From a virus: 64,000 nt of DNA. The notes below the pieces were generated by a model. That model had not been told where the DNA came from. It did not search any database and was given only the letters and a program-made list of their open reading frames with translations. The stretch lies in the IMG/VR virus record IMGVR_UViG_3300025840_000013; one strand, given 5' to 3'. Position numbers and translations under genes: made by a program. Shown here in pieces: positions 5,604-56,356 of the stretch; the stretch's first letter is position 1; every line of letters starts with the position of its first letter.

Positions 5604-5730
5604 AGTGAAAGAAAGATTCAGTGAAGAAAAATTCCGTTGGGAAGCTCTAACGGAAGAACAGGCATTAGATGTTGTTGCAAAACTTAAGTCTGATGGTAAA
5701 TATTGGTCACTTGAAATTGGAGAAATGTAG
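5590..5730 (+). CDS. small hypothetical protein (46 aa, not in ORF track)
   Basis: AGGAG SD; MFFVEVKERFSEEKFRWEALTEEQALDVVAKLKSDGKYWSLEIGEM. Confidence 0.55.
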   Translation: MFFVEVKERFSEEKFRWEALTEEQALDVVAKLKSDGKYWSLEIGEM

Positions 5731-6500: not shown

Positions 6501-6764
6501 ATGGACTTGGATGAGTATGAGGAAGATATTAGATTAAATGCAGTAAGTTATAGTATTATAGCATTTAAACCTCAAACCTCAACAAAACAAGTCGGGGAAA
6601 CAAAAACTTTTGAAGATGCCATAAAAATGGCATATGAAATTCATAAAGAAAATAGTTTCCGCAGTGTATTGATTTATGCAGTTAATGAGACTGGACGATT
6701 TGTTTTAAATGCCTTCGTTAGAAGTGATGATATGAAACTCAAAATAATTGGGAGTAGAAAATGA
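6501..6764 (+). CDS. hypothetical protein
   Basis: AAGGA SD; abuts the previous stop. Confidence 0.65.
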   Translation: MDLDEYEEDIRLNAVSYSIIAFKPQTSTKQVGETKTFEDAIKMAYEIHKENSFRSVLIYAVNETGRFVLNAFVRSDDMKLKIIGSRK

Positions 6765-6985
6765 GTAATCAGCGAAGAGGAAACTGGAAACCAGCTGCAA
6801 TGAATGATAGTAGTAGAATAGATGCAATGTCTTTGACTACTTTCTGTAAACATGCAAAAGTTATTTTAGAGGAACGTGGAGAAGAAGATGCTGCATTCTA
6901 CTTTGGACAAGTAGAAGATTGGTTGCGTGATGGGGGAAGAATTCAAACTGGACACAATGATGTTGCCAGAATTCTTGGTGTGTAA
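6761..6985 (+). CDS. hypothetical protein
   Basis: ATGA overlap, GGGAG SD. Confidence 0.65.
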   Translation: MSNQRRGNWKPAAMNDSSRIDAMSLTTFCKHAKVILEERGEEDAAFYFGQVEDWLRDGGRIQTGHNDVARILGV

Positions 6986-7246: not shown

Positions 7247-7323
7247 CTGCCCTTAGCTCAGCTGGATAGAGCAACAGCCTTCTAAGCTGTGGGTCGTAGG
7301 TTCGAATCCTACAGGGCAGGCCA
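7247..7323 (+). tRNA. tRNA-Arg(TCT)
   Basis: Acceptor CTGCCCT/AGGGCAG, anticodon arm ACAGC-CTTCTAA-GCTGT, TTCGAAT loop, encoded CCA. Confidence 0.97.
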
Positions 7324-7330
7324 ATTAATA

Positions 7331-7445
7331 TCGGGCGAGTCGGACGCTCGATTTTGTCGAGTGAGTAAAAACACGGTTAAGCCTGAAAACGACACTAAAT
7401 AGAAGACTCAGGTGGGAAGTTGGAAATCCCTCACAAGAAACCAAC
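7331..7445 (+). ncRNA. candidate structured RNA with pseudoknots, downstream of tRNA-Arg
   Basis: Stems TCGGGCG/CGCTCGA, TGTCG/CGACA crossing CCTGA/TCAGG, and H-type GGGA/TCCC + GTTGG/CCAAC. Confidence 0.5.
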
Positions 7446-7461
7446 ATGATTAAACAGGGGC

Positions 7462-7548
7462 GGACAGTAGGAAGAGGCGACTAATGTATAAGAAAATAAA
7501 GCGGCCTGCAACCCCTCAAACTGCTAAGGTTACGAACACCTACTGTCC
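7462..7548 (+). ncRNA. candidate structured RNA closed by a 10-bp stem
   Basis: GGACAGTAGG/CCTACTGTCC enclosing 67 nt, followed by a T-run. Confidence 0.45.
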
Positions 7549-7569
7549 TTTTTATTCGGAGTTACTATA

Positions 7570-7773
7570 ATGCAAGTATCACCAGTATCGCCAGTAAGAA
7601 TTGTGAGTGAGTATGTTAGACAACTGAATGTCGGTGATAAAATTCATAACATTGTAGTAACACATAAAGATTTTGGAGGCTCTGTTAGAGTTGAAGAAGT
7701 TTATAGAACATACGATAAAACTGGAAAGATAAGAACAGTCGAACCAGTTAGTAAAGTTGATGTTGAAGTTTAG
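7570..7773 (+). CDS. hypothetical protein within the tRNA cluster
   Basis: GGAG SD; TAG stop abuts the 5' end of tRNA-Gly. Confidence 0.65.
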   Translation: MQVSPVSPVRIVSEYVRQLNVGDKIHNIVVTHKDFGGSVRVEEVYRTYDKTGKIRTVEPVSKVDVEV

Positions 7774-7847
7774 GCGGATGTCGTATAATGGTATTACCTT
7801 AGCCTTCCAAGCTAATGACAGGGGTTCGATTCCCCTCATCCGCTCCA
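7774..7847 (+). tRNA. tRNA-Gly(TCC)
   Basis: GCGGATG/CATCCGC acceptor, TTAGC-CTTCCAA-GCTAA, CCA. Confidence 0.97.
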
Positions 7848-7855
7848 AAAATAAA

Positions 7856-8026
7856 AATCCAAGGTGACGGCCTGTGGATTGTGGTGACTGAATAATCCCT
7901 TGCAAATGGGGATAAGGTAATGTCGAAGGAACTTAGCGGTTCGTCTTAGCGGATGCAGACAGGTATGAGTCAAGTTAGACAGGAAGTTTGCCAGTGACTC
8001 GTTGCAGGATCCTAACCCTGCCCACA
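7856..8026 (+). ncRNA. candidate multi-stem ncRNA with twin CTTAGCGG hairpins (possibly manA-like)
   Basis: At least seven helices, duplicated loop, GCAAAT/GTTTGC pseudoknot; family assignment not verified. Confidence 0.6.
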
Positions 8027-8038
8027 CTAATAAATTTC

Positions 8039-8118
8039 TAAGTACACATGAGAGTAGATGCACCTACTTTCCTGTGCATAGGACAAGGGTTTGAAAGACT
8101 GCAAGTCATGTGTATTTA
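8039..8118 (+). ncRNA. candidate kissing-loop RNA
   Basis: 13-bp closing stem; two hairpins whose loops ATGCAC and GTGCAT are exact reverse complements. Confidence 0.55.
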
Positions 8119-8127
8119 AAAATTTAT

Positions 8128-8204
8128 CGGGGTATAGCGCAGTCTGGTAGCGCATCTGCTTTGGGAGCAGAGGGTCGTTGGTTCGAATCCAGCTACCCCG
8201 ACCA
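8128..8204 (+). tRNA. tRNA-Pro(TGG)
   Basis: CGGGGTA/TACCCCG acceptor, TCTGC-TTTGGGA-GCAGA, CCA. Confidence 0.97.
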
Positions 8205-8216
8205 ATTTAGGAATAT

Positions 8217-8292
8217 TCCCAGATAGCTCAGTTGGTAGAGCAAATGACTGTTAATCATTGGGTCGGGGGTTCGAGCCCCTCTCTGGGAGCCA
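8217..8292 (+). tRNA. tRNA-Asn(GTT)
   Basis: TCCCAGA/TCTGGGA acceptor, AATGA-CTGTTAA-TCATT, CCA. Confidence 0.97.
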
Positions 8293-8312
8293 AATAAAGA
8301 GTAGGATACTAG

Positions 8313-8855
8313 TTGAGTAATTTTAGATTTATTGAAAAGAACCTAGATGTAAGTAAGATACTACAACAAGTTCTTGATAATCCAAAAGATTGGAATTATG
8401 TTAATAACTTAAAGACAGATGGAAAAGATGTCGGCGGTGATGTAGACCCATATGGATTCTTGCCTCTAGTTATGGCAGTTGTAAAGCCAGGAGAAAGTCC
8501 AAAGAATACAGAAAAAACTCAGAAGACTGAGCTTTATGATAAATATGATGAAGTTTCGAAGTGGTTAAGAAGTCAAGGAATAACACAATTATCAAGAGCT
8601 GCATTTTTTAAGTTGGGTGTTGATGAGTGGGTTGGTAAACATATAGATGAAGGATCTTACTATTTAACTAGAGATAGGTATCATCTTTCTCTACAAGGTA
8701 GTTATGATTATGAAGTTGATGGAGAATGGCATACTATTGAGCCGGGCACTTTCTTCTGGTTTGATAATAAAAAATACCATCAGGCGCATAATGTAGGTGA
8801 TGTTGAAAGAATAACTTTTGTATTTGATGTTCCAAAGTCAGAAAACAATCCATAG
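8313..8855 (+). CDS. aspartyl/asparaginyl beta-hydroxylase-like 2OG-Fe(II) oxygenase
   Basis: HID...RYHL...FWFDNKKYHQAHN...RITFVFD double-stranded beta-helix motifs; TTG start with AGGA SD. Confidence 0.8.
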   Translation: MSNFRFIEKNLDVSKILQQVLDNPKDWNYVNNLKTDGKDVGGDVDPYGFLPLVMAVVKPGESPKNTEKTQKTELYDKYDEVSKWLRSQGITQLSRAAFFKLGVDEWVGKHIDEGSYYLTRDRYHLSLQGSYDYEVDGEWHTIEPGTFFWFDNKKYHQAHNVGDVERITFVFDVPKSENNP

Positions 8856-8867
8856 TAAGGATACGAG

Positions 8868-9149
8868 ATGTATAAACCTCTACCAGAAGAAGTAACAATA
8901 AAAAAATCAGGTATACACGGACTTGGCCTTTGGTGCATAAAACCGATCAAAGAAGGAACTGAGATCGGAATGTCGCATTTTTATTGGGGAGAAAATTTGC
9001 AAAGAACTCCATTAGGTGCTTTTTATAATCACTCTGACGAACCTAATATAGTAAAGATTAAAAAAGATAGTAGATTCTTTATTGTTGCCATTAGAGATAT
9101 TTGGCCAGGCGAAGAGATTACATGTCAGTATACTTTTTATCAGATGTAA
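8868..9149 (+). CDS. minimal SET-domain protein (putative lysine methyltransferase)
   Basis: SGIHGLGL, YNHSDEPN, RDIWPGEEITCQY signature motifs. Confidence 0.9.
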   Translation: MYKPLPEEVTIKKSGIHGLGLWCIKPIKEGTEIGMSHFYWGENLQRTPLGAFYNHSDEPNIVKIKKDSRFFIVAIRDIWPGEEITCQYTFYQM

Positions 9150-9165
9150 AGGATGTATATATATT

Positions 9166-9339
9166 ATGAGAATGGAAACTGCGAAGAAAAATTTTGATAT
9201 TGATGTTGCAGGGAATATACTTTTAAATAGTAGTCAGTCTCCCAAGGATTTGCAAATTCAAAGTGGAGATACATATGCTGCAATGATTGTTGATGGAAAG
9301 CCCATTCTAATTAAGTTGGAGTTAACTTTAAAAGAATAG
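9166..9339 (+). CDS. hypothetical protein
   Basis: Track 9082..9339; internal ATG after AAGGA. Confidence 0.5.
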   Translation: MRMETAKKNFDIDVAGNILLNSSQSPKDLQIQSGDTYAAMIVDGKPILIKLELTLKE

Positions 9340-9347
9340 GAATAGTT

Positions 9348-9545
9348 ATGTCACTTGGATTTAGAGACAAATACCAAAACATAATTAAGAATTTAGTTCA
9401 GAATGCCGACCAGTGCAGTCAACAGTGGGTTCTTACTGGAGAACCAGAATGGCATGCTGCATATATGATGTATGTTGGAAAGGTTTGTGAATTAAAGGAC
9501 TGGATTAAAGAAAGAGAAAGTGAAATAGAGAATACGCCGCTGTAG
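9348..9545 (+). CDS. hypothetical protein whose stop codon lies inside tRNA-Thr
   Basis: AGGA SD; last codons overlap tRNA-Thr at 9536-9545. Confidence 0.65.
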   Translation: MSLGFRDKYQNIIKNLVQNADQCSQQWVLTGEPEWHAAYMMYVGKVCELKDWIKERESEIENTPL

Positions 9546-9611
9546 CTCAGCTGGTAGAGCAACTGATTTGTAATCAGTAGGTCGGGAGTTCGAATCTCTC
9601 TAGCGGCACCA
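9536..9611 (+). tRNA. tRNA-Thr(TGT)
   Basis: GCCGCTG/TAGCGGC acceptor, ACTGA-TTTGTAA-TCAGT, CCA. Confidence 0.96.
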
Positions 9612-13467: not shown

Positions 13468-13661
13468 AAATAAGTTGGGGTTACTTTATAAGTATCCCCA
13501 TGTCTTCTTACTTTATCCTTCTATTCCTCTTGGGTTTATTTGGAAAAAGTTTAATGATATTTACACCAGAAAAAAATATAGTAATGTATGAGTTTTTTGG
13601 TGTTGTATTAATACATTATATTTTTTATATTATTTTTTGCTTGACAAAAAGAAAAGAATAG
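13464..13661 (+). CDS. small two-TM protein with basic C-terminus (holin candidate)
   Basis: ATGA overlap with the endolysin; two hydrophobic helices, ends TKRKE. Confidence 0.4.
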   Translation: MKISWGYFISIPMSSYFILLFLLGLFGKSLMIFTPEKNIVMYEFFGVVLIHYIFYIIFCLTKRKE

Positions 13662-13671
13662 TGTATAAATA
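13641..13671 (+). promoter_or_regulatory. composite sigma70 / T4 late promoter for the tmRNA
   Basis: cTTGACA-17-TATAAA where the -10 box is part of TATAAATA. Confidence 0.75.
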
Positions 13672-13674
13672 CAG

Positions 13675-13980
13675 TTGTAATTGTTGATACGATTCAACAT
13701 ACATACTGGACTTGGGGGCAGTACCCAACGCCTCCACCATAAGCACATCCGTAAGGCGCAGTAAGGTTCCCAACGGATTACCGTAGAAGACTACGCAGGG
13801 TGTGTTTATGATGGGGGCGAACTAGGATCGACAGGTGTGTAGAGATGAGAGTAGATTACCGTGTTGACCTACGATATTCGGTCGAACAAAACTAAACGCA
13901 AACGATAACTTTGCACCTGAGTTTGCTCTAGCAGCATGATCAGCGGGGTATGGGTTCCACCTTGTTACCAAACGGGCCCG
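13675..13980 (+). ncRNA. ssrA: circularly permuted two-piece tmRNA, alphaproteobacterial type
   Basis: Acceptor piece ends GGAC-TTGGG-GGCAGTA-CCCAA-CGCCTCC-ACCA (13739); coding piece starts GGGGGCG (13813) with a G3.U pair; tag ORF 13898-13939 ANDNFAPEFALAA*; outer ends approximate. Confidence 0.93.
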
Positions 13981-14005
13981 CAGTCATAGTAAAAGGATTT
14001 AATAA

Positions 14006-14353
14006 ATGACAAAGTTTTTATTCGGGGCCGCTTCGGCGGTTTTTTTATGCACATCTGCAATGGCAGAAGGAATTAGAGGCCATGTAGATGGCGAAGTTGA
14101 ATATAGTTTGGAAAATGAAAAATTTACATCTGAATTAGGATACACAATGGCACTTCCACAAGGATTGGTGCTACGCCCATGGGCAGATTTTTCATATGAT
14201 CGTAACTTAGCATCTGATACAATTAATTTTGACGGTGTTAATTTAGGAGTTTCATATGCAGTATCTCCTGCACTTTCTCTTTACAGTGATATTAGTGCAG
14301 ATCATGATTTTGAATATGAAGATACATCAGTTGGATTTCGCTTTACATTCTGA
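14006..14353 (+). CDS. small outer-membrane beta-barrel protein
   Basis: Signal peptide ending AMA, alternating beta strands, C-terminal VGFRFTF motif. Confidence 0.75.
   Translation: MTKFLFGAASAVFLCTSAMAEGIRGHVDGEVEYSLENEKFTSELGYTMALPQGLVLRPWADFSYDRNLASDTINFDGVNLGVSYAVSPALSLYSDISADHDFEYEDTSVGFRFTF
14027..14046 (+). terminator. intrinsic terminator inside the signal-peptide codons of the OMP gene
   Basis: GCCGC-TTCG-GCGGT followed by a T-run (cUUCGg tetraloop). Confidence 0.7.
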
Positions 14354-53600: not shown

Positions 53601-56356
53601 CACAATTTGGATCTACAGTTACGGAACCACCTGTCGTAATACCTGGCCAGGGAACTATACCCACAAAGAGTCAACTGATTAGTGTTACTGGTGGGGTTGC
53701 GACAAATAGAACTTACGCACTATCTACTTTACCAATAAACTCTTTGAAATACACAAGAGATAATTTACAAAGTACTCCATTGTCGTATTATGCAGACCTT
53801 CCATCAAGTGGTGCAAATATTGTAAGTGCATTGGTTGAAAAATTCCCAATTAATACTTACTGGTTCGAATCATCAGGATTAGGAGAATTGCATTTCTTTA
53901 ATAATGATGGTGGAGACGGCGGTTCTTCGTGGCATGGTTCTGGTACAAGAGTTGCACCTGAGTTTCCAACAAATGGAAGTCCATCAGAACCAAATCCAGT
54001 ATATGGATCTGGTGGTGCAGCTGGCCAACATGGTATGAGATATTATAGTAGTACATCGAAAAGTGCTACTATTGGTGGACAGGCAGCTGCAAGTGGATTC
54101 TTTGGTGACTTTATGGTATCGCCCGGCGATATTGTTGATATTAAAGTCGGTAGAGGTGGACAATCAAATCAGACCTCATACTTAGATTTGGTGCCTGGCA
54201 GTCAAACTCAAGAAAGTACATATGAATCTAACTCAGGAGATGGTGGAGATGGTGTAGTTGTCGTATTTGGTTCTAAAGGAAACGATTATACAAAAATATC
54301 AAAGCCTGGCATTGCATTGATTGACGATAGAGGACAAGTTGTTATGTACTCTGTTGCGAATGTATTTTGTGAAGGAAATCAAGAGTTAACTGGTTCAATT
54401 TCTTCAAAAGAAATACTTTTATTCGGACAAGGAAAACAGTATTACTTGGTGCATACTTTCCAATTGCAGAAAAACGGAACACAAAAATACCGTGTATATT
54501 TATGTCAAAATGGAGAACATTACGCAAAAGTAGAAAGAAGTGGCACTGCGCCTGGCCCATTCTTTAGTCCCAGTCCACCAGCTGGATATCTTCCATCCGT
54601 ACAAATAACTACAGATCCAGTACAGGCGCCAGATGAATATGTTGTCACTGGTGCAAAGAGAAGTGACATTGATAATGATATTCAAAGTCCAGACCCATGG
54701 CCGATTAGAAAATGTACGGTTACATTTGAAACTACTCGACAAGCTAGTTATGAAAACACAATGACATTTACTAATATTGGTAGTGGTGGTATTGGCCCGT
54801 CATCAATCGTATTTGGCCCTAATGCTAGTACACAGACATTTACATTGAGTGAAGATGATGTCTATGTTTTACGTTCCTCTGGATTGCAAAGTAACAGAGC
54901 ATCATCAATGACAACAAGAATCATCGATGATGGAAGGTCACACCAAAACACAACTGGTGGTTCAACTTCTGACGGACGGCCGACAGGTGTTCTTAGAAAT
55001 AAACAATTTCCAGATTATTTACATTCTGGTAACTGTGATGAAACCCCTACAGGTGGTACATCTGTTTTTGCCGTGCTAAAACAGGAAGGTCAACCCACTA
55101 TGTATTATATTAAATGGGGAACAGATGTGATTAAAGGTGATGGTGTTAGTTTTGGAACTGTTGCCAAAGCTGATAATACTCTTTCTTCATATGGATTTGT
55201 TCCCGCTGTCGAAAATAACCCCTACAGTAACTATTCATGGGATATAAATTGGGAAGGATCGTGGTCTTTTGACAACGACAGTTCAAATACAGAAAGTATA
55301 GATTATAATGGATGGCGCTATCATAGGGATCCAAGCAATCTCATTGCCGCTTGTACTAAGACTGCTGGGGGTAATACAATAACATATCAAATATGGGGAA
55401 TATTCAGAAAAGAACTGCCGGGCGGAGAATCGACAACTGAAAACAACAATAACAGTTGGACTACACTTGAAATGGATGACGGTGTTGATAATGACTTCAC
55501 TGACTTAAGAGTTACACCTTCGCCAATGGGTAACTTTTATGTAGAGGGTGGATTAACTCACTTTAATTGTTTCTTCTTGGGTGATGGAACTGGAACTGGA
55601 ACAACTTGGACACGCCCACCGCCTGCAGACACGGGCGGTAACAATGATAATAGTGGCGGCCCTTCTGGACCAAGCACTGCACCTGTAACAGTAGTTACAG
55701 ATGGGGATGGGGATCCAGTTGTTGATAGCAATGGGGATCCAGTAACTTCTGGTGGCGGTGGTAATGATGATAATCATAATGAACCAACATTTATGTCTCA
55801 CTATGAACCATCAACTGGAACTGTAACATATTTTGATAGTCCTATGACACATAATGAAATTCAATCCCTAAGGGCGGATCAACCAGATGGTGTATTCTCT
55901 ACTGGAACTGGAGCGCCTGGGGCAATGATTGGCCCAACTAGAGATGACAACATTAGTGATTCTGGTGGTAGTGGTACTTCTGGACAGTCTGATAAGATTG
56001 TTTGTACGGAGATGTATAGACAGACACAACTAGATGATTGGAAAACTGCAATGAAGATTTGGGGATTGCACACAAAGACTCATTTGACTCAGTATCACCA
56101 AAGAGGGTATCATTTCTTATTCATGCCTTGGGTTAAAGGAATGAGAAAGAGTGATACCTTAACTAAGTCTGGTGGATGGTTGGCACAAAGAAGAACGCAA
56201 CACTTAAAGTATATTTTAAGTAGAGATGGTTATGCAGGACACTTAGGTATTGGTAAAAAAGAGAAAGACGATATTGTGGGAAGAATTTGGTGTACTGTGT
56301 GGCATCCAATTACTTTTGTAACTGGAAAAATTCTTTCAATATTTAGAGATAAATAG
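50672..56356 (+). CDS. large tail-fibre/adhesin-like protein with Gly-rich domain and IVCT C-terminal domain
   Basis: SLSEYYRGG N-terminus, GAGGSG/GGDGG Gly-rich elements, internal repeats, DKIVCTEMY...GYH tail. Confidence 0.7.
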   Translation: MAIPADGRLKMTHIVAEFKPVNNSAPHSLSEYYRGGGNVPDRFNNRNIPVGPRGRTIKYSDFRGTSDATLPYNILIPTICVEDAWKYMRLRDGTFMTRWDQINDNNTVYFTRNEELGSVRIDTPQDWEYVKLTIPAMSFKMGTEEGFEQVGYEQHWSNKVDNQQVFEAGDWKIRIPKGYRRLRILATGAGGSGSSQYIPGQPTVEDYVREGLVGTEDQGFAGEDTTITMPNNQKIKIFGGIGGKLSNATGESTTIRGETTDTLQTETGTVTLASGFSETDYAEGKYNGSYILETNDSNYQFYWQNQLLATSNDISEDVRDSSGWLYTSTSEVIDEDPQGTLKWYKVSRVKSLEVSAEVTDRIYNSMLERNANATEKSRHVNSDTVVDVIRYIQGRTGFVDVIAANPDFGPNTFSTTDGFKYLLAQASSLSTSTTTNIPNYSGTDTGTINTSGNLYQHKVYAENGTTANNNQTTTTTISNVADNLLLTFEHLGDTTFAYNANFLFPIRNVRGTISNGFPALGEYVFTDIDGQNYYRGEIIGVSDGFIDTTRVGFDEDFTEGQSGFAEITYSAWTASTQTTEVTSTTANTPIAANSAATNSEFVVSSSGNFYYEYNAYLQNTTQSVRPELEIYVNGVRQVNYTGSSAPTLTGNQGEIRLASGRLNITNPDSTVKVVTDLKTVTTSAILPEIDGGGFSTIARSGTHDLPLGATGQPAGKGIFIWGHNFFASQKLYTDVNGNVSVVHQSSSDPEYWFFMTTEEDAGQFYTPASYGTERIFVGVHNAGKSVYVWGKNYFRSYTFSVDNDGYFSFIHPSSSDREQWYYAIGKRGANFTTPAESGTYTLELDATYAGMEVIVWSKNFWGINGRLTPTSTSPAPRHLVFDSEGKVELSHWSSSDDEQWYWCVTDGGTTSQPAGVGGVSMNSFTLETSLDTDTIDKIYQKYVGRNSNVIDRDLFRQQNYTVFQGINYVVGTAEYAAQFGSTVTEPPVVIPGQGTIPTKSQLISVTGGVATNRTYALSTLPINSLKYTRDNLQSTPLSYYADLPSSGANIVSALVEKFPINTYWFESSGLGELHFFNNDGGDGGSSWHGSGTRVAPEFPTNGSPSEPNPVYGSGGAAGQHGMRYYSSTSKSATIGGQAAASGFFGDFMVSPGDIVDIKVGRGGQSNQTSYLDLVPGSQTQESTYESNSGDGGDGVVVVFGSKGNDYTKISKPGIALIDDRGQVVMYSVANVFCEGNQELTGSISSKEILLFGQGKQYYLVHTFQLQKNGTQKYRVYLCQNGEHYAKVERSGTAPGPFFSPSPPAGYLPSVQITTDPVQAPDEYVVTGAKRSDIDNDIQSPDPWPIRKCTVTFETTRQASYENTMTFTNIGSGGIGPSSIVFGPNASTQTFTLSEDDVYVLRSSGLQSNRASSMTTRIIDDGRSHQNTTGGSTSDGRPTGVLRNKQFPDYLHSGNCDETPTGGTSVFAVLKQEGQPTMYYIKWGTDVIKGDGVSFGTVAKADNTLSSYGFVPAVENNPYSNYSWDINWEGSWSFDNDSSNTESIDYNGWRYHRDPSNLIAACTKTAGGNTITYQIWGIFRKELPGGESTTENNNNSWTTLEMDDGVDNDFTDLRVTPSPMGNFYVEGGLTHFNCFFLGDGTGTGTTWTRPPPADTGGNNDNSGGPSGPSTAPVTVVTDGDGDPVVDSNGDPVTSGGGGNDDNHNEPTFMSHYEPSTGTVTYFDSPMTHNEIQSLRADQPDGVFSTGTGAPGAMIGPTRDDNISDSGGSGTSGQSDKIVCTEMYRQTQLDDWKTAMKIWGLHTKTHLTQYHQRGYHFLFMPWVKGMRKSDTLTKSGGWLAQRRTQHLKYILSRDGYAGHLGIGKKEKDDIVGRIWCTVWHPITFVTGKILSIFRDK

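Follow-up and report, generated by a model that had tools for sequence, protein, structure and literature searches.

The intervening segment (IVS) of a circularly permuted tmRNA gene, in a 64,000-nucleotide stretch of viral DNA (IMG/VR record IMGVR_UViG_3300025840_000013; the whole stretch is hereafter the window), is rather likely to be a modular cassette, in which a carrier stem of conserved sequence encloses a structured RNA cargo with a 31-nt invariant core, and which is swapped among phages and then released, acting on its own. The stem-bounded cassette system centered on the tmRNA spacer is real and apparently undescribed, and two structured RNA families found with it are apparently undescribed too: a 73-nt RNA with the 31-nt invariant core and a four-helix RNA with complementary loops. 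The IVS of two-piece tmRNAs, so far treated as disposable, behaves here as a cargo slot, and permuted tmRNA genes of the alpha and the beta type are seen to have exchanged a precisely bounded RNA module laterally. These relationships tie the spacers of tmRNA genes to small RNAs in phage tRNA clusters that have so far had no explanation, and they bear on annotation, in which small genes and RNAs inside tmRNA genes, such as the IVS ORF of phage Melnitz, are now skipped. Culturable systems for testing exist, namely Melnitz on OM43 and pelagimyophages on SAR11.

The tmRNA gene and its setting

The G+C content of the window is ~36%, and tRNA genes for Arg, Gly, Pro, Asn, and Thr form a cluster at 7247-9611. 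ARAGORN places a circularly permuted tmRNA with the tag ANDNFAPEFALAA at 13646-14030, and full-length matches to the Rfam models RF04321 and RF01849 scored 120.5 and 112.9 bits (gathering scores 47 and 50, respectively); the gene qualifies as a circularly permuted tmRNA of the alpha type (RF01849). On the + strand, the acceptor piece (13677-13739 in the RF04321 alignment) comprises the T-arm, the 3′ acceptor strand, and an encoded CCA at 13737-13739, while the coding piece (13813-13982; ARAGORN and Rfam) holds the tag reading frame, which ends in LAA and spans 13898-13939 including the stop (ARAGORN). In the precursor fold the acceptor piece, with T-arm and CCA, comes first and the 5′ strand of the coding piece completes the acceptor stem.

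A promoter-like site read from the sequence (TTGACA, a 17-nt spacer, and TATAAA; 13641-13669, + strand) stands upstream of the tmRNA gene; it is absent from the consensus-scan list because the last base of its second hexamer is not T. An equal promoter arrangement is found upstream of the ssrA gene of Melnitz, ahead of which an early promoter has been placed (PMC9004378). The closest named relatives of the window tmRNA are those of Methylophilales phages of the Melnitz group, and genes near the tmRNA encode PhoH, a PD-(D/E)XK nuclease, a Mom-like protein, and a peroxiredoxin; such neighbors are in keeping with a source of the window among aquatic T4-like myophages related to Melnitz and the pelagimyophages (PMC9004378). 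No homing endonuclease was recognized among the 10 largest ORFs at 9.8-17.1 kb. The nearest record, G001, is without the tRNA region. As read from the sequence, ~250 nt between tRNA-Arg and a small ORF at 7571 (7324-7570) are likely non-coding and could hold another RNA of the tRNA operon.

Anatomy and conservation of the cassette

The IVS is a 73-nt cassette on the + strand occupying exactly 13740-13812, between the end of the CCA at 13739 and the start of the coding piece at 13813, just as the original prediction had delimited it. Its predicted 11-bp closing stem was likewise borne out: the two strands of the carrier stem P1 (13740-13750 and 13798-13808, both + strand) pair through nine Watson-Crick and two G-U pairs, and the fold agrees with the comparison of copies, in which two pairs are changed on both sides. 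An inner helix of seven positions had also been proposed, and the comparison of copies places it as P2 (13756-13762 with 13790-13796, + strand). P2 is present, and perfect in relatives, but contains one C-A mismatch in the window where relatives have U-A; one pair of this helix varies as A-U, G-U, or G-C, and one is changed on both sides. The proposed ACGG/CCGU hairpin (13773-13784) exists too, although its sequence is the same in every copy and the minimum-energy fold offers a rival pairing. Because the apical part of the cassette never varies, the apical fold is tentative. This hairpin is held by an invariant block of 31 nt (13761-13791, + strand), identical in all eight aligned copies. At its 3′ end the cassette closes with a UGAU leader (13809-13812, + strand), which abuts the coding piece at its mature 5′ end and whose positions are each shared by 31-33 of 34 class representatives.

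Folded alone, the IVS departs only modestly from shuffles (z -2.27), and the cassette fold is taken as real because of the comparison with relatives, not because of fold energy alone. Among the seven tmRNA-borne copies there are 20 variable columns, all in stems or junctions and some with compensatory changes, and none inside the 31-nt block (P = 1.2e-6 for a variation-free block of 31 nt; 5e-5 when corrected for block position), the window-type cargo being represented by only six distinct sequences in these seven contexts. Such a pattern, with changing stems and a fixed core, is a sign that the cargo is under selection and has not simply been copied recently.

Searches for a known identity or origin of this RNA were negative. 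Rfam 15 gave no credible match to the window IVS, lenient thresholds included (best 17.4 bits, gathering score 39). The best antisense complement of the invariant core in the window was 11 nt at 5633, which 64 of 200 shuffled cores equaled. In bacterial genomes an 18-nt word from the core occurred only in Streptomyces, Flagellimonas, and a deltaproteobacterial MAG, in no case in a tmRNA context; these matches were set down to chance, with ~17 expected in 596 Gb by a rough estimate, and the bacterial genomes searched with this word gave no sign of a host origin of the cassette.

Exchange between tmRNA backbones

The core of the window IVS was found in seven viral and eight metagenome contigs, and the IVS is carried by at least six other tmRNA backbones, with identity of up to 72/72; the backbones that share it are 51-58% identical where measured. 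In L124, L125, and L127 the IVS is 72/72 identical to that of the window, and the flanking tmRNA pieces are 55-58% identical. Conversely, the tmRNA pieces of G001 are 99-100% identical to those of the window and its IVS is unrelated (92 nt vs. 73 nt); the closing stem of G001 is kept via compensatory changes despite the replaced cargo. Further backbones with the window cargo have the tags ANDDVYSLAA, ANDDNYTLALAA, ANDDVYQLAA, and ANDELYEHAIAA. The transfers are sharply bounded in the alignments, which show that conservation of the cargo does not depend on the tmRNA around it.

The tmRNA that hosts the cassette in L124 is best matched by the beta_tmRNA model (RF01850, 101.8 bits), and the alpha and beta lineages of permuted tmRNA are held to have independent origins. 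L183 has the cargo module (inner helix and core) outside any tmRNA, within a larger stem-closed element of a tRNA array, ~107 nt after tRNA-Arg and ahead of a protein gene, with no tRNA 5′ end directly adjacent. Judged by these copies, the cargo has been exchanged among very different tmRNA genes, including one of beta type, and into a tRNA array. L124 contains two permuted tmRNA genes, an alpha-type gene with a short IVS (579-877) and the beta-type gene with the window’s 72-nt cassette (6532-6902). In L184, the tmRNA range given by ARAGORN (872-1374) has a tRNA-Met inside it (976-1054), just upstream of an acceptor piece with a window-type cassette. A supposed copy in L182 was rejected as a chance match in coding-looking sequence.

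The tmRNA spacer as a slot for many cargos

The last 26 nt of the acceptor piece recur exactly in at least 119 viral contigs. In the contigs sharing this word, the IVS is 31-210 nt long and falls into ~32 unrelated classes, most of the sampled tmRNA genes having been retrieved by this one common word and hence being related. The cargos are of several kinds, including minimal hairpins of 31-32 nt, structured RNAs, and small ORFs with ribosome-binding sites. In a census of 162 parsed phage tmRNA genes, 43 backbone clusters and 40 cargo clusters were combined many-to-many: more than one cargo was found in 10 backbones (one of them with 10), and more than one backbone for 10 cargos. The window’s backbone has five cargos and its cargo occurs in four of the backbone clusters of this census, while the cargo type represented in the window by a second element at 8039-8118 occurs in 11 backbones. 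The census shows a slot that accommodates dozens of unrelated cargos in related phages.

What the classes have in common is the carrier stem, for which 34 unrelated class representatives give the consensus 5′ UAARYACAY, with the complement at the 3′ end and then the UGAU tail. A carrier stem of 8-14 bp defines the cassette class, and the window IVS (11 bp) and the 8039-8118 element (13 bp) both fit. The consensus could be a tmRNA processing requirement and not part of a mobile unit. When Rfam was run on 19 other IVS classes, only tmRNA, tRNA, and glutamine-riboswitch matches were returned. A Blast comparison of all IVSs against all loci found non-tmRNA copies only of the 8039-type RNA, before tRNA-Pro, and of the ORF in the L018 IVS, which has homologues elsewhere in other phages.

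Protein-coding cargos have features of their own. Pfam and PHROGs searches with eight IVS ORFs gave a single match, DUF6356; the 152-nt IVS of L005 (6425-6598) encodes this member of the family (E = 4.8e-8, above the cut-off), so IVS ORFs can be genuine protein genes. In the published ssrA of Methylophilales phage Melnitz (MZ577097; L142, 1554-1718), the 142-nt IVS holds a small ORF, equipped with a ribosome-binding site but not annotated, that is related to the ORF in the L010 IVS. The Melnitz ORF has no stop codon in the IVS and runs 42 nt into the coding piece, so that a cut at the mature 5′ end would yield a non-stop message; the IVS ORFs of L013, L005, L002, L018, and L074 likewise overrun into the coding piece. 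A conserved small hydrophobic peptide is encoded by another class (L037, 2279-2401, and 13 other distinct IVSs; 159-186 nt), with its ribosome-binding site in the carrier stem and the UGA of the UGAU tail as its stop, and this peptide had no Pfam or PHROG matches. The 60-nt IVS of L023 contains a tandem duplication with a unit of ~23 nt that includes the 5′ strand of the carrier stem, as might result from the doubling of a cassette boundary.

A second cassette in the tRNA cluster

The element at 8039-8118 (+ strand), a putative kissing-loop RNA according to its fold and the alignment of relatives, lies 9 nt upstream of tRNA-Pro (8128-8204, + strand; ARAGORN). It is built, all on the + strand, of P1 (8039-8051 with 8106-8118), H1 (8053-8057 with 8064-8068), H2 (8070-8073 with 8080-8083), and H3 (8088-8090 with 8098-8100). 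In nine sequences of this type the four-helix junction has 98% of cells paired and 11 pairs changed on both sides, against 0 or 1 double-changed pair in slid controls. Its two 6-nt hairpin loops (8058-8063 and 8074-8079, + strand) are exact mutual complements and covary, with the loop pairs AUGCAC/GUGCAU vs. CUGCAA/UUGCAG within the type and CUGCAU/AUGCAG in another class. The H1 and H2 hairpins are one base apart, and geometric reasoning suggests that the loops are no less likely to pair across two molecules than inside a single one. The best Rfam 15 match to 8039-8118 was 18.8 bits (gathering score 56.1).

A 34-nt core of this element is found exactly in 15 viral contigs, in 13 of them as a tmRNA IVS. 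With a degenerate motif 57 copies of the type were recovered, 46 as tmRNA IVSs and 11 upstream of tRNA-Pro; the latter are all of one clade, which includes the window, and L101 and L126 are among the contigs with the tRNA-Pro arrangement. The distribution of copies shows 8039-8118 to be an IVS-type cargo relocated to the tRNA-Pro leader in the window’s clade. Enrichment of cassettes beside tRNA genes, which the original prediction had led one to look for, is narrow: it is seen for the 8039 type in this one clade (11 contigs) and for the window type in one contig, but the usual home of both is the tmRNA IVS. Between tRNA-Gly and the second cassette, directly upstream of the latter, lies a manA-like structured RNA (7859-8031, + strand; RF01745, 44.4 bits against a gathering score of 55.2, E = 4.4e-9), and a flank of this kind accompanies all 11 copies upstream of tRNA-Pro.

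Processing and proposed action

It is established that tRNA-processing enzymes split the transcript of a permuted tmRNA gene in two (PMC11915505). The precursor of the window tmRNA has a predicted fold of -61.2 kcal/mol (z -3.76), in which the acceptor and carrier stems are nearly continuous and form a composite helix of ~21 bp with two single-base bulges. We propose that these two stems are stacked in the precursor, that RNase P would cut at 13812/13813, after the UGAU leader, and that the cut of CCA 3′ maturation would fall at 13739/13740. Alternatively, RNase III might cut the composite helix, whose predicted form is compatible with cleavage by this enzyme. By either route a stem-closed RNA of 70-80 nt would be released. 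Release by RNase P cannot account for every context, given that the L183 copy lies away from any tRNA 5′ end. The released RNA would act alone, most likely by binding a protein or ligand via the invariant core, the very invariance of which suggests a specific partner, either a protein or a small ligand. Exchange would most likely proceed by recombination of co-infecting phages at the short conserved sequences of the acceptor and carrier stems.

Contigs of the metatranscriptomes X1 and X2 span the whole precursor, IVS included, and those of X5 and X7 do not cover the IVS and start at 13808/13809, all of these being assembled contigs in which RNA ends are not visible. The gaps in X5 and X7 are likelier to be assembly breaks, since the IVS is hypervariable among co-occurring phages; DNA carry-over may also be present in metatranscriptome contigs. 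In X7 the outer 9 nt of both carrier strands match the window (13748 / 13800) and the 51 nt between are skipped, which hints that the stem encloses another cargo there or that a deletion has occurred.

A broader reading can be advanced, though we hold it with distinctly less assurance than the cassette itself and regard it as tentative. According to this reading, aquatic phages employ the excised tmRNA spacer, and equivalent places in tRNA operons, as a general expression and delivery slot for mobile cargo bounded by a stem. This cargo, comprising new families of structured RNAs and mini-genes, would pass from one independently permuted tmRNA lineage to another, be freed by the host’s stable-RNA processing enzymes, and act in trans in infection, for example as protein-binding decoys or as self-assembling or anti-defence RNAs.

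Alternative explanations

The cassette might instead be a cis-acting aptamer or folding switch that controls the maturation or expression of the downstream tmRNA piece, tRNA, or mRNA, and not a released, trans-acting RNA. An invariant core inside covarying helices is indeed the typical anatomy of a ligand-binding aptamer, in L183 the module is closely followed by a protein gene that has a ribosome-binding site, a manA-like RNA adjoins the second cassette, and riboswitches occur near tmRNA in relatives, as with the glutamine riboswitch after the Melnitz tmRNA (PMC9004378). However, the downstream partner of the window cargo varies by context (alpha-type tmRNA, beta-type tmRNA, or protein gene), no Rfam aptamer was matched, and the slot is also filled by minimal hairpins of 31-32 nt and by protein-coding cargos, so that tmRNA maturation does not depend on any one regulator. 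We consider control in cis unlikely.

It is equally unlikely, in our estimation, that the cassette is a selfish or neutral passenger spread by recombination into a slot that tolerates anything stem-closed, with no benefit to the phage, as in the case of 23S rRNA intervening sequences. The sporadic, many-to-many distribution and the sharp bounds of the transfers would be expected of such an element, some spacers are minimal hairpins, and structure could be selected for the element’s own spread. Yet substitutions wholly avoid the 31-nt core while the stems change with compensation, and the four helices and complementary loops of the 8039 type are kept by covariation across at least 11 backbones and a non-tmRNA site.

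That the IVS is a plain spacer or processing scaffold, merely joining the acceptor strands while its sequence drifts freely, is the standard view of permuted tmRNA and agrees with the high variability of IVS length and sequence, but it is very improbable here, as drift predicts the reverse of what is seen: the IVS is identical where the tmRNAs agree at 55-58% and unrelated where they agree at 99-100%. The invariant core speaks against drift as well.

Relationship between the two window elements

The original prediction had also regarded 13740-13812 and 8039-8118 as alike. Local alignment of the two gives a score of 13, compared with 13.0 +/- 2.1 for dinucleotide shuffles, their inner parts are no more similar (p ~0.39), and 79% of unrelated IVS class pairs score at least as high as they do. 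The 3′ strand that had seemed similar corresponds, in the 8039-type family, to the loop and 3′ strand of the third hairpin, H3; because this hairpin is variable and covarying, the similarity is taken as coincidental. Of the mirrored ends, the closing-stem consensus stands as common to both elements, but the likeness of the cargos is at chance. Covariance models of the 8039-type RNA (R1) and the IVS type (R2) gave no cross-matches between the two RNAs at E up to 1, nor did R2 match any other IVS class at E up to 1. The closing-stem consensus with nine pairs occurs at three sites in the window vs. 0.2 in shuffles, and two of these are 13740-13812 and 8039-8118; the third, at 54213-54368, falls within an ORF of 1894 aa and was taken as chance.

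The suspected cassette family, made up of stem-closed RNAs that share one kind of carrier stem, holds up, with both window elements as members and well over 100 contigs in place of two copies, whereas the cargos belong to two distinct families by alignment and covariance models. The view that the two elements are copies of a single RNA family can point to the carrier-stem consensus in both and to a short common word, AAGACT, but is hardly tenable with an alignment score at shuffle level, two models that do not recognize each other’s RNA, and a word that sits in the variable hairpin of the 8039-type family.

Comparison with known systems

The closest known counterpart is the IVS of permuted tmRNA genes in general, which has the same position, following the encoded CCA and preceding the coding piece (Keiler, Shapiro and Williams 2000; Sharkady and Williams 2004; PMC11915505). 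The known IVS is missing from mature tmRNA, with the precursor cut by tRNA-processing enzymes, and in the literature it is a spacer, whereas the window IVS is a conserved structured RNA, common to unrelated backbones and part of a large exchangeable repertoire. Oddities inside an IVS have been recorded as one tRNA-Ala and one repetitive element (PMC11915505). The two-piece tmRNAs of Melnitz-like and pelagimyophage-like phages are the nearest named relatives and have the promoter layout, PhoH, and the PD-(D/E)XK nuclease in common with the window (PMC9004378). The phage tmRNA and a glutamine riboswitch are discussed in that report, in the text of which the word “intervening” is absent (PMC9004378); by Rfam, the Melnitz glutamine riboswitch lies 3′ of the coding piece. 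A conserved, exchanged IVS cargo is not described in the literature searched, a search that was incomplete and is no proof of novelty.

Bacterial 23S rRNAs contain sporadic intervening sequences that are excised by RNase III, some of them with an S23p ORF. These resemble the phage cassettes as stem-closed inserts in a stable-RNA gene that are removed without religation, that have a patchy distribution suggesting lateral exchange, and that at times encode protein. The cassettes differ in being borne by another host RNA and most likely handled by other nucleases, and many of the phage cargos, unlike 23S rRNA intervening sequences, are covarying structured RNAs, some of them located in tRNA operons.

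Stable RNAs C and D of phage T4 are structured non-coding RNAs in a phage tRNA cluster. Together with GOLLD, ROOL, and the manA RNA (RF01745), they are like the window RNAs in their co-location with phage tRNAs, probable co-transcription, and a function that is not known. GOLLD and ROOL form complexes via kissing loops (10.1101/2024.12.08.627333), and the complementary loops of the 8039 type recall such loop-loop contacts of RNA-RNA assembly. Compared with these RNAs, those of the window are far shorter, at 73-80 nt, and no Rfam model matches them.

Finally, integron gene cassettes offer an analogy, and only that, in having one expression slot, many interchangeable cargos, and a conserved structured boundary. 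Unlike in integrons, there is no integrase or attC-type site; the slot of the phage cassettes lies inside a stable-RNA gene, and homologous or microhomology recombination is probably enough.
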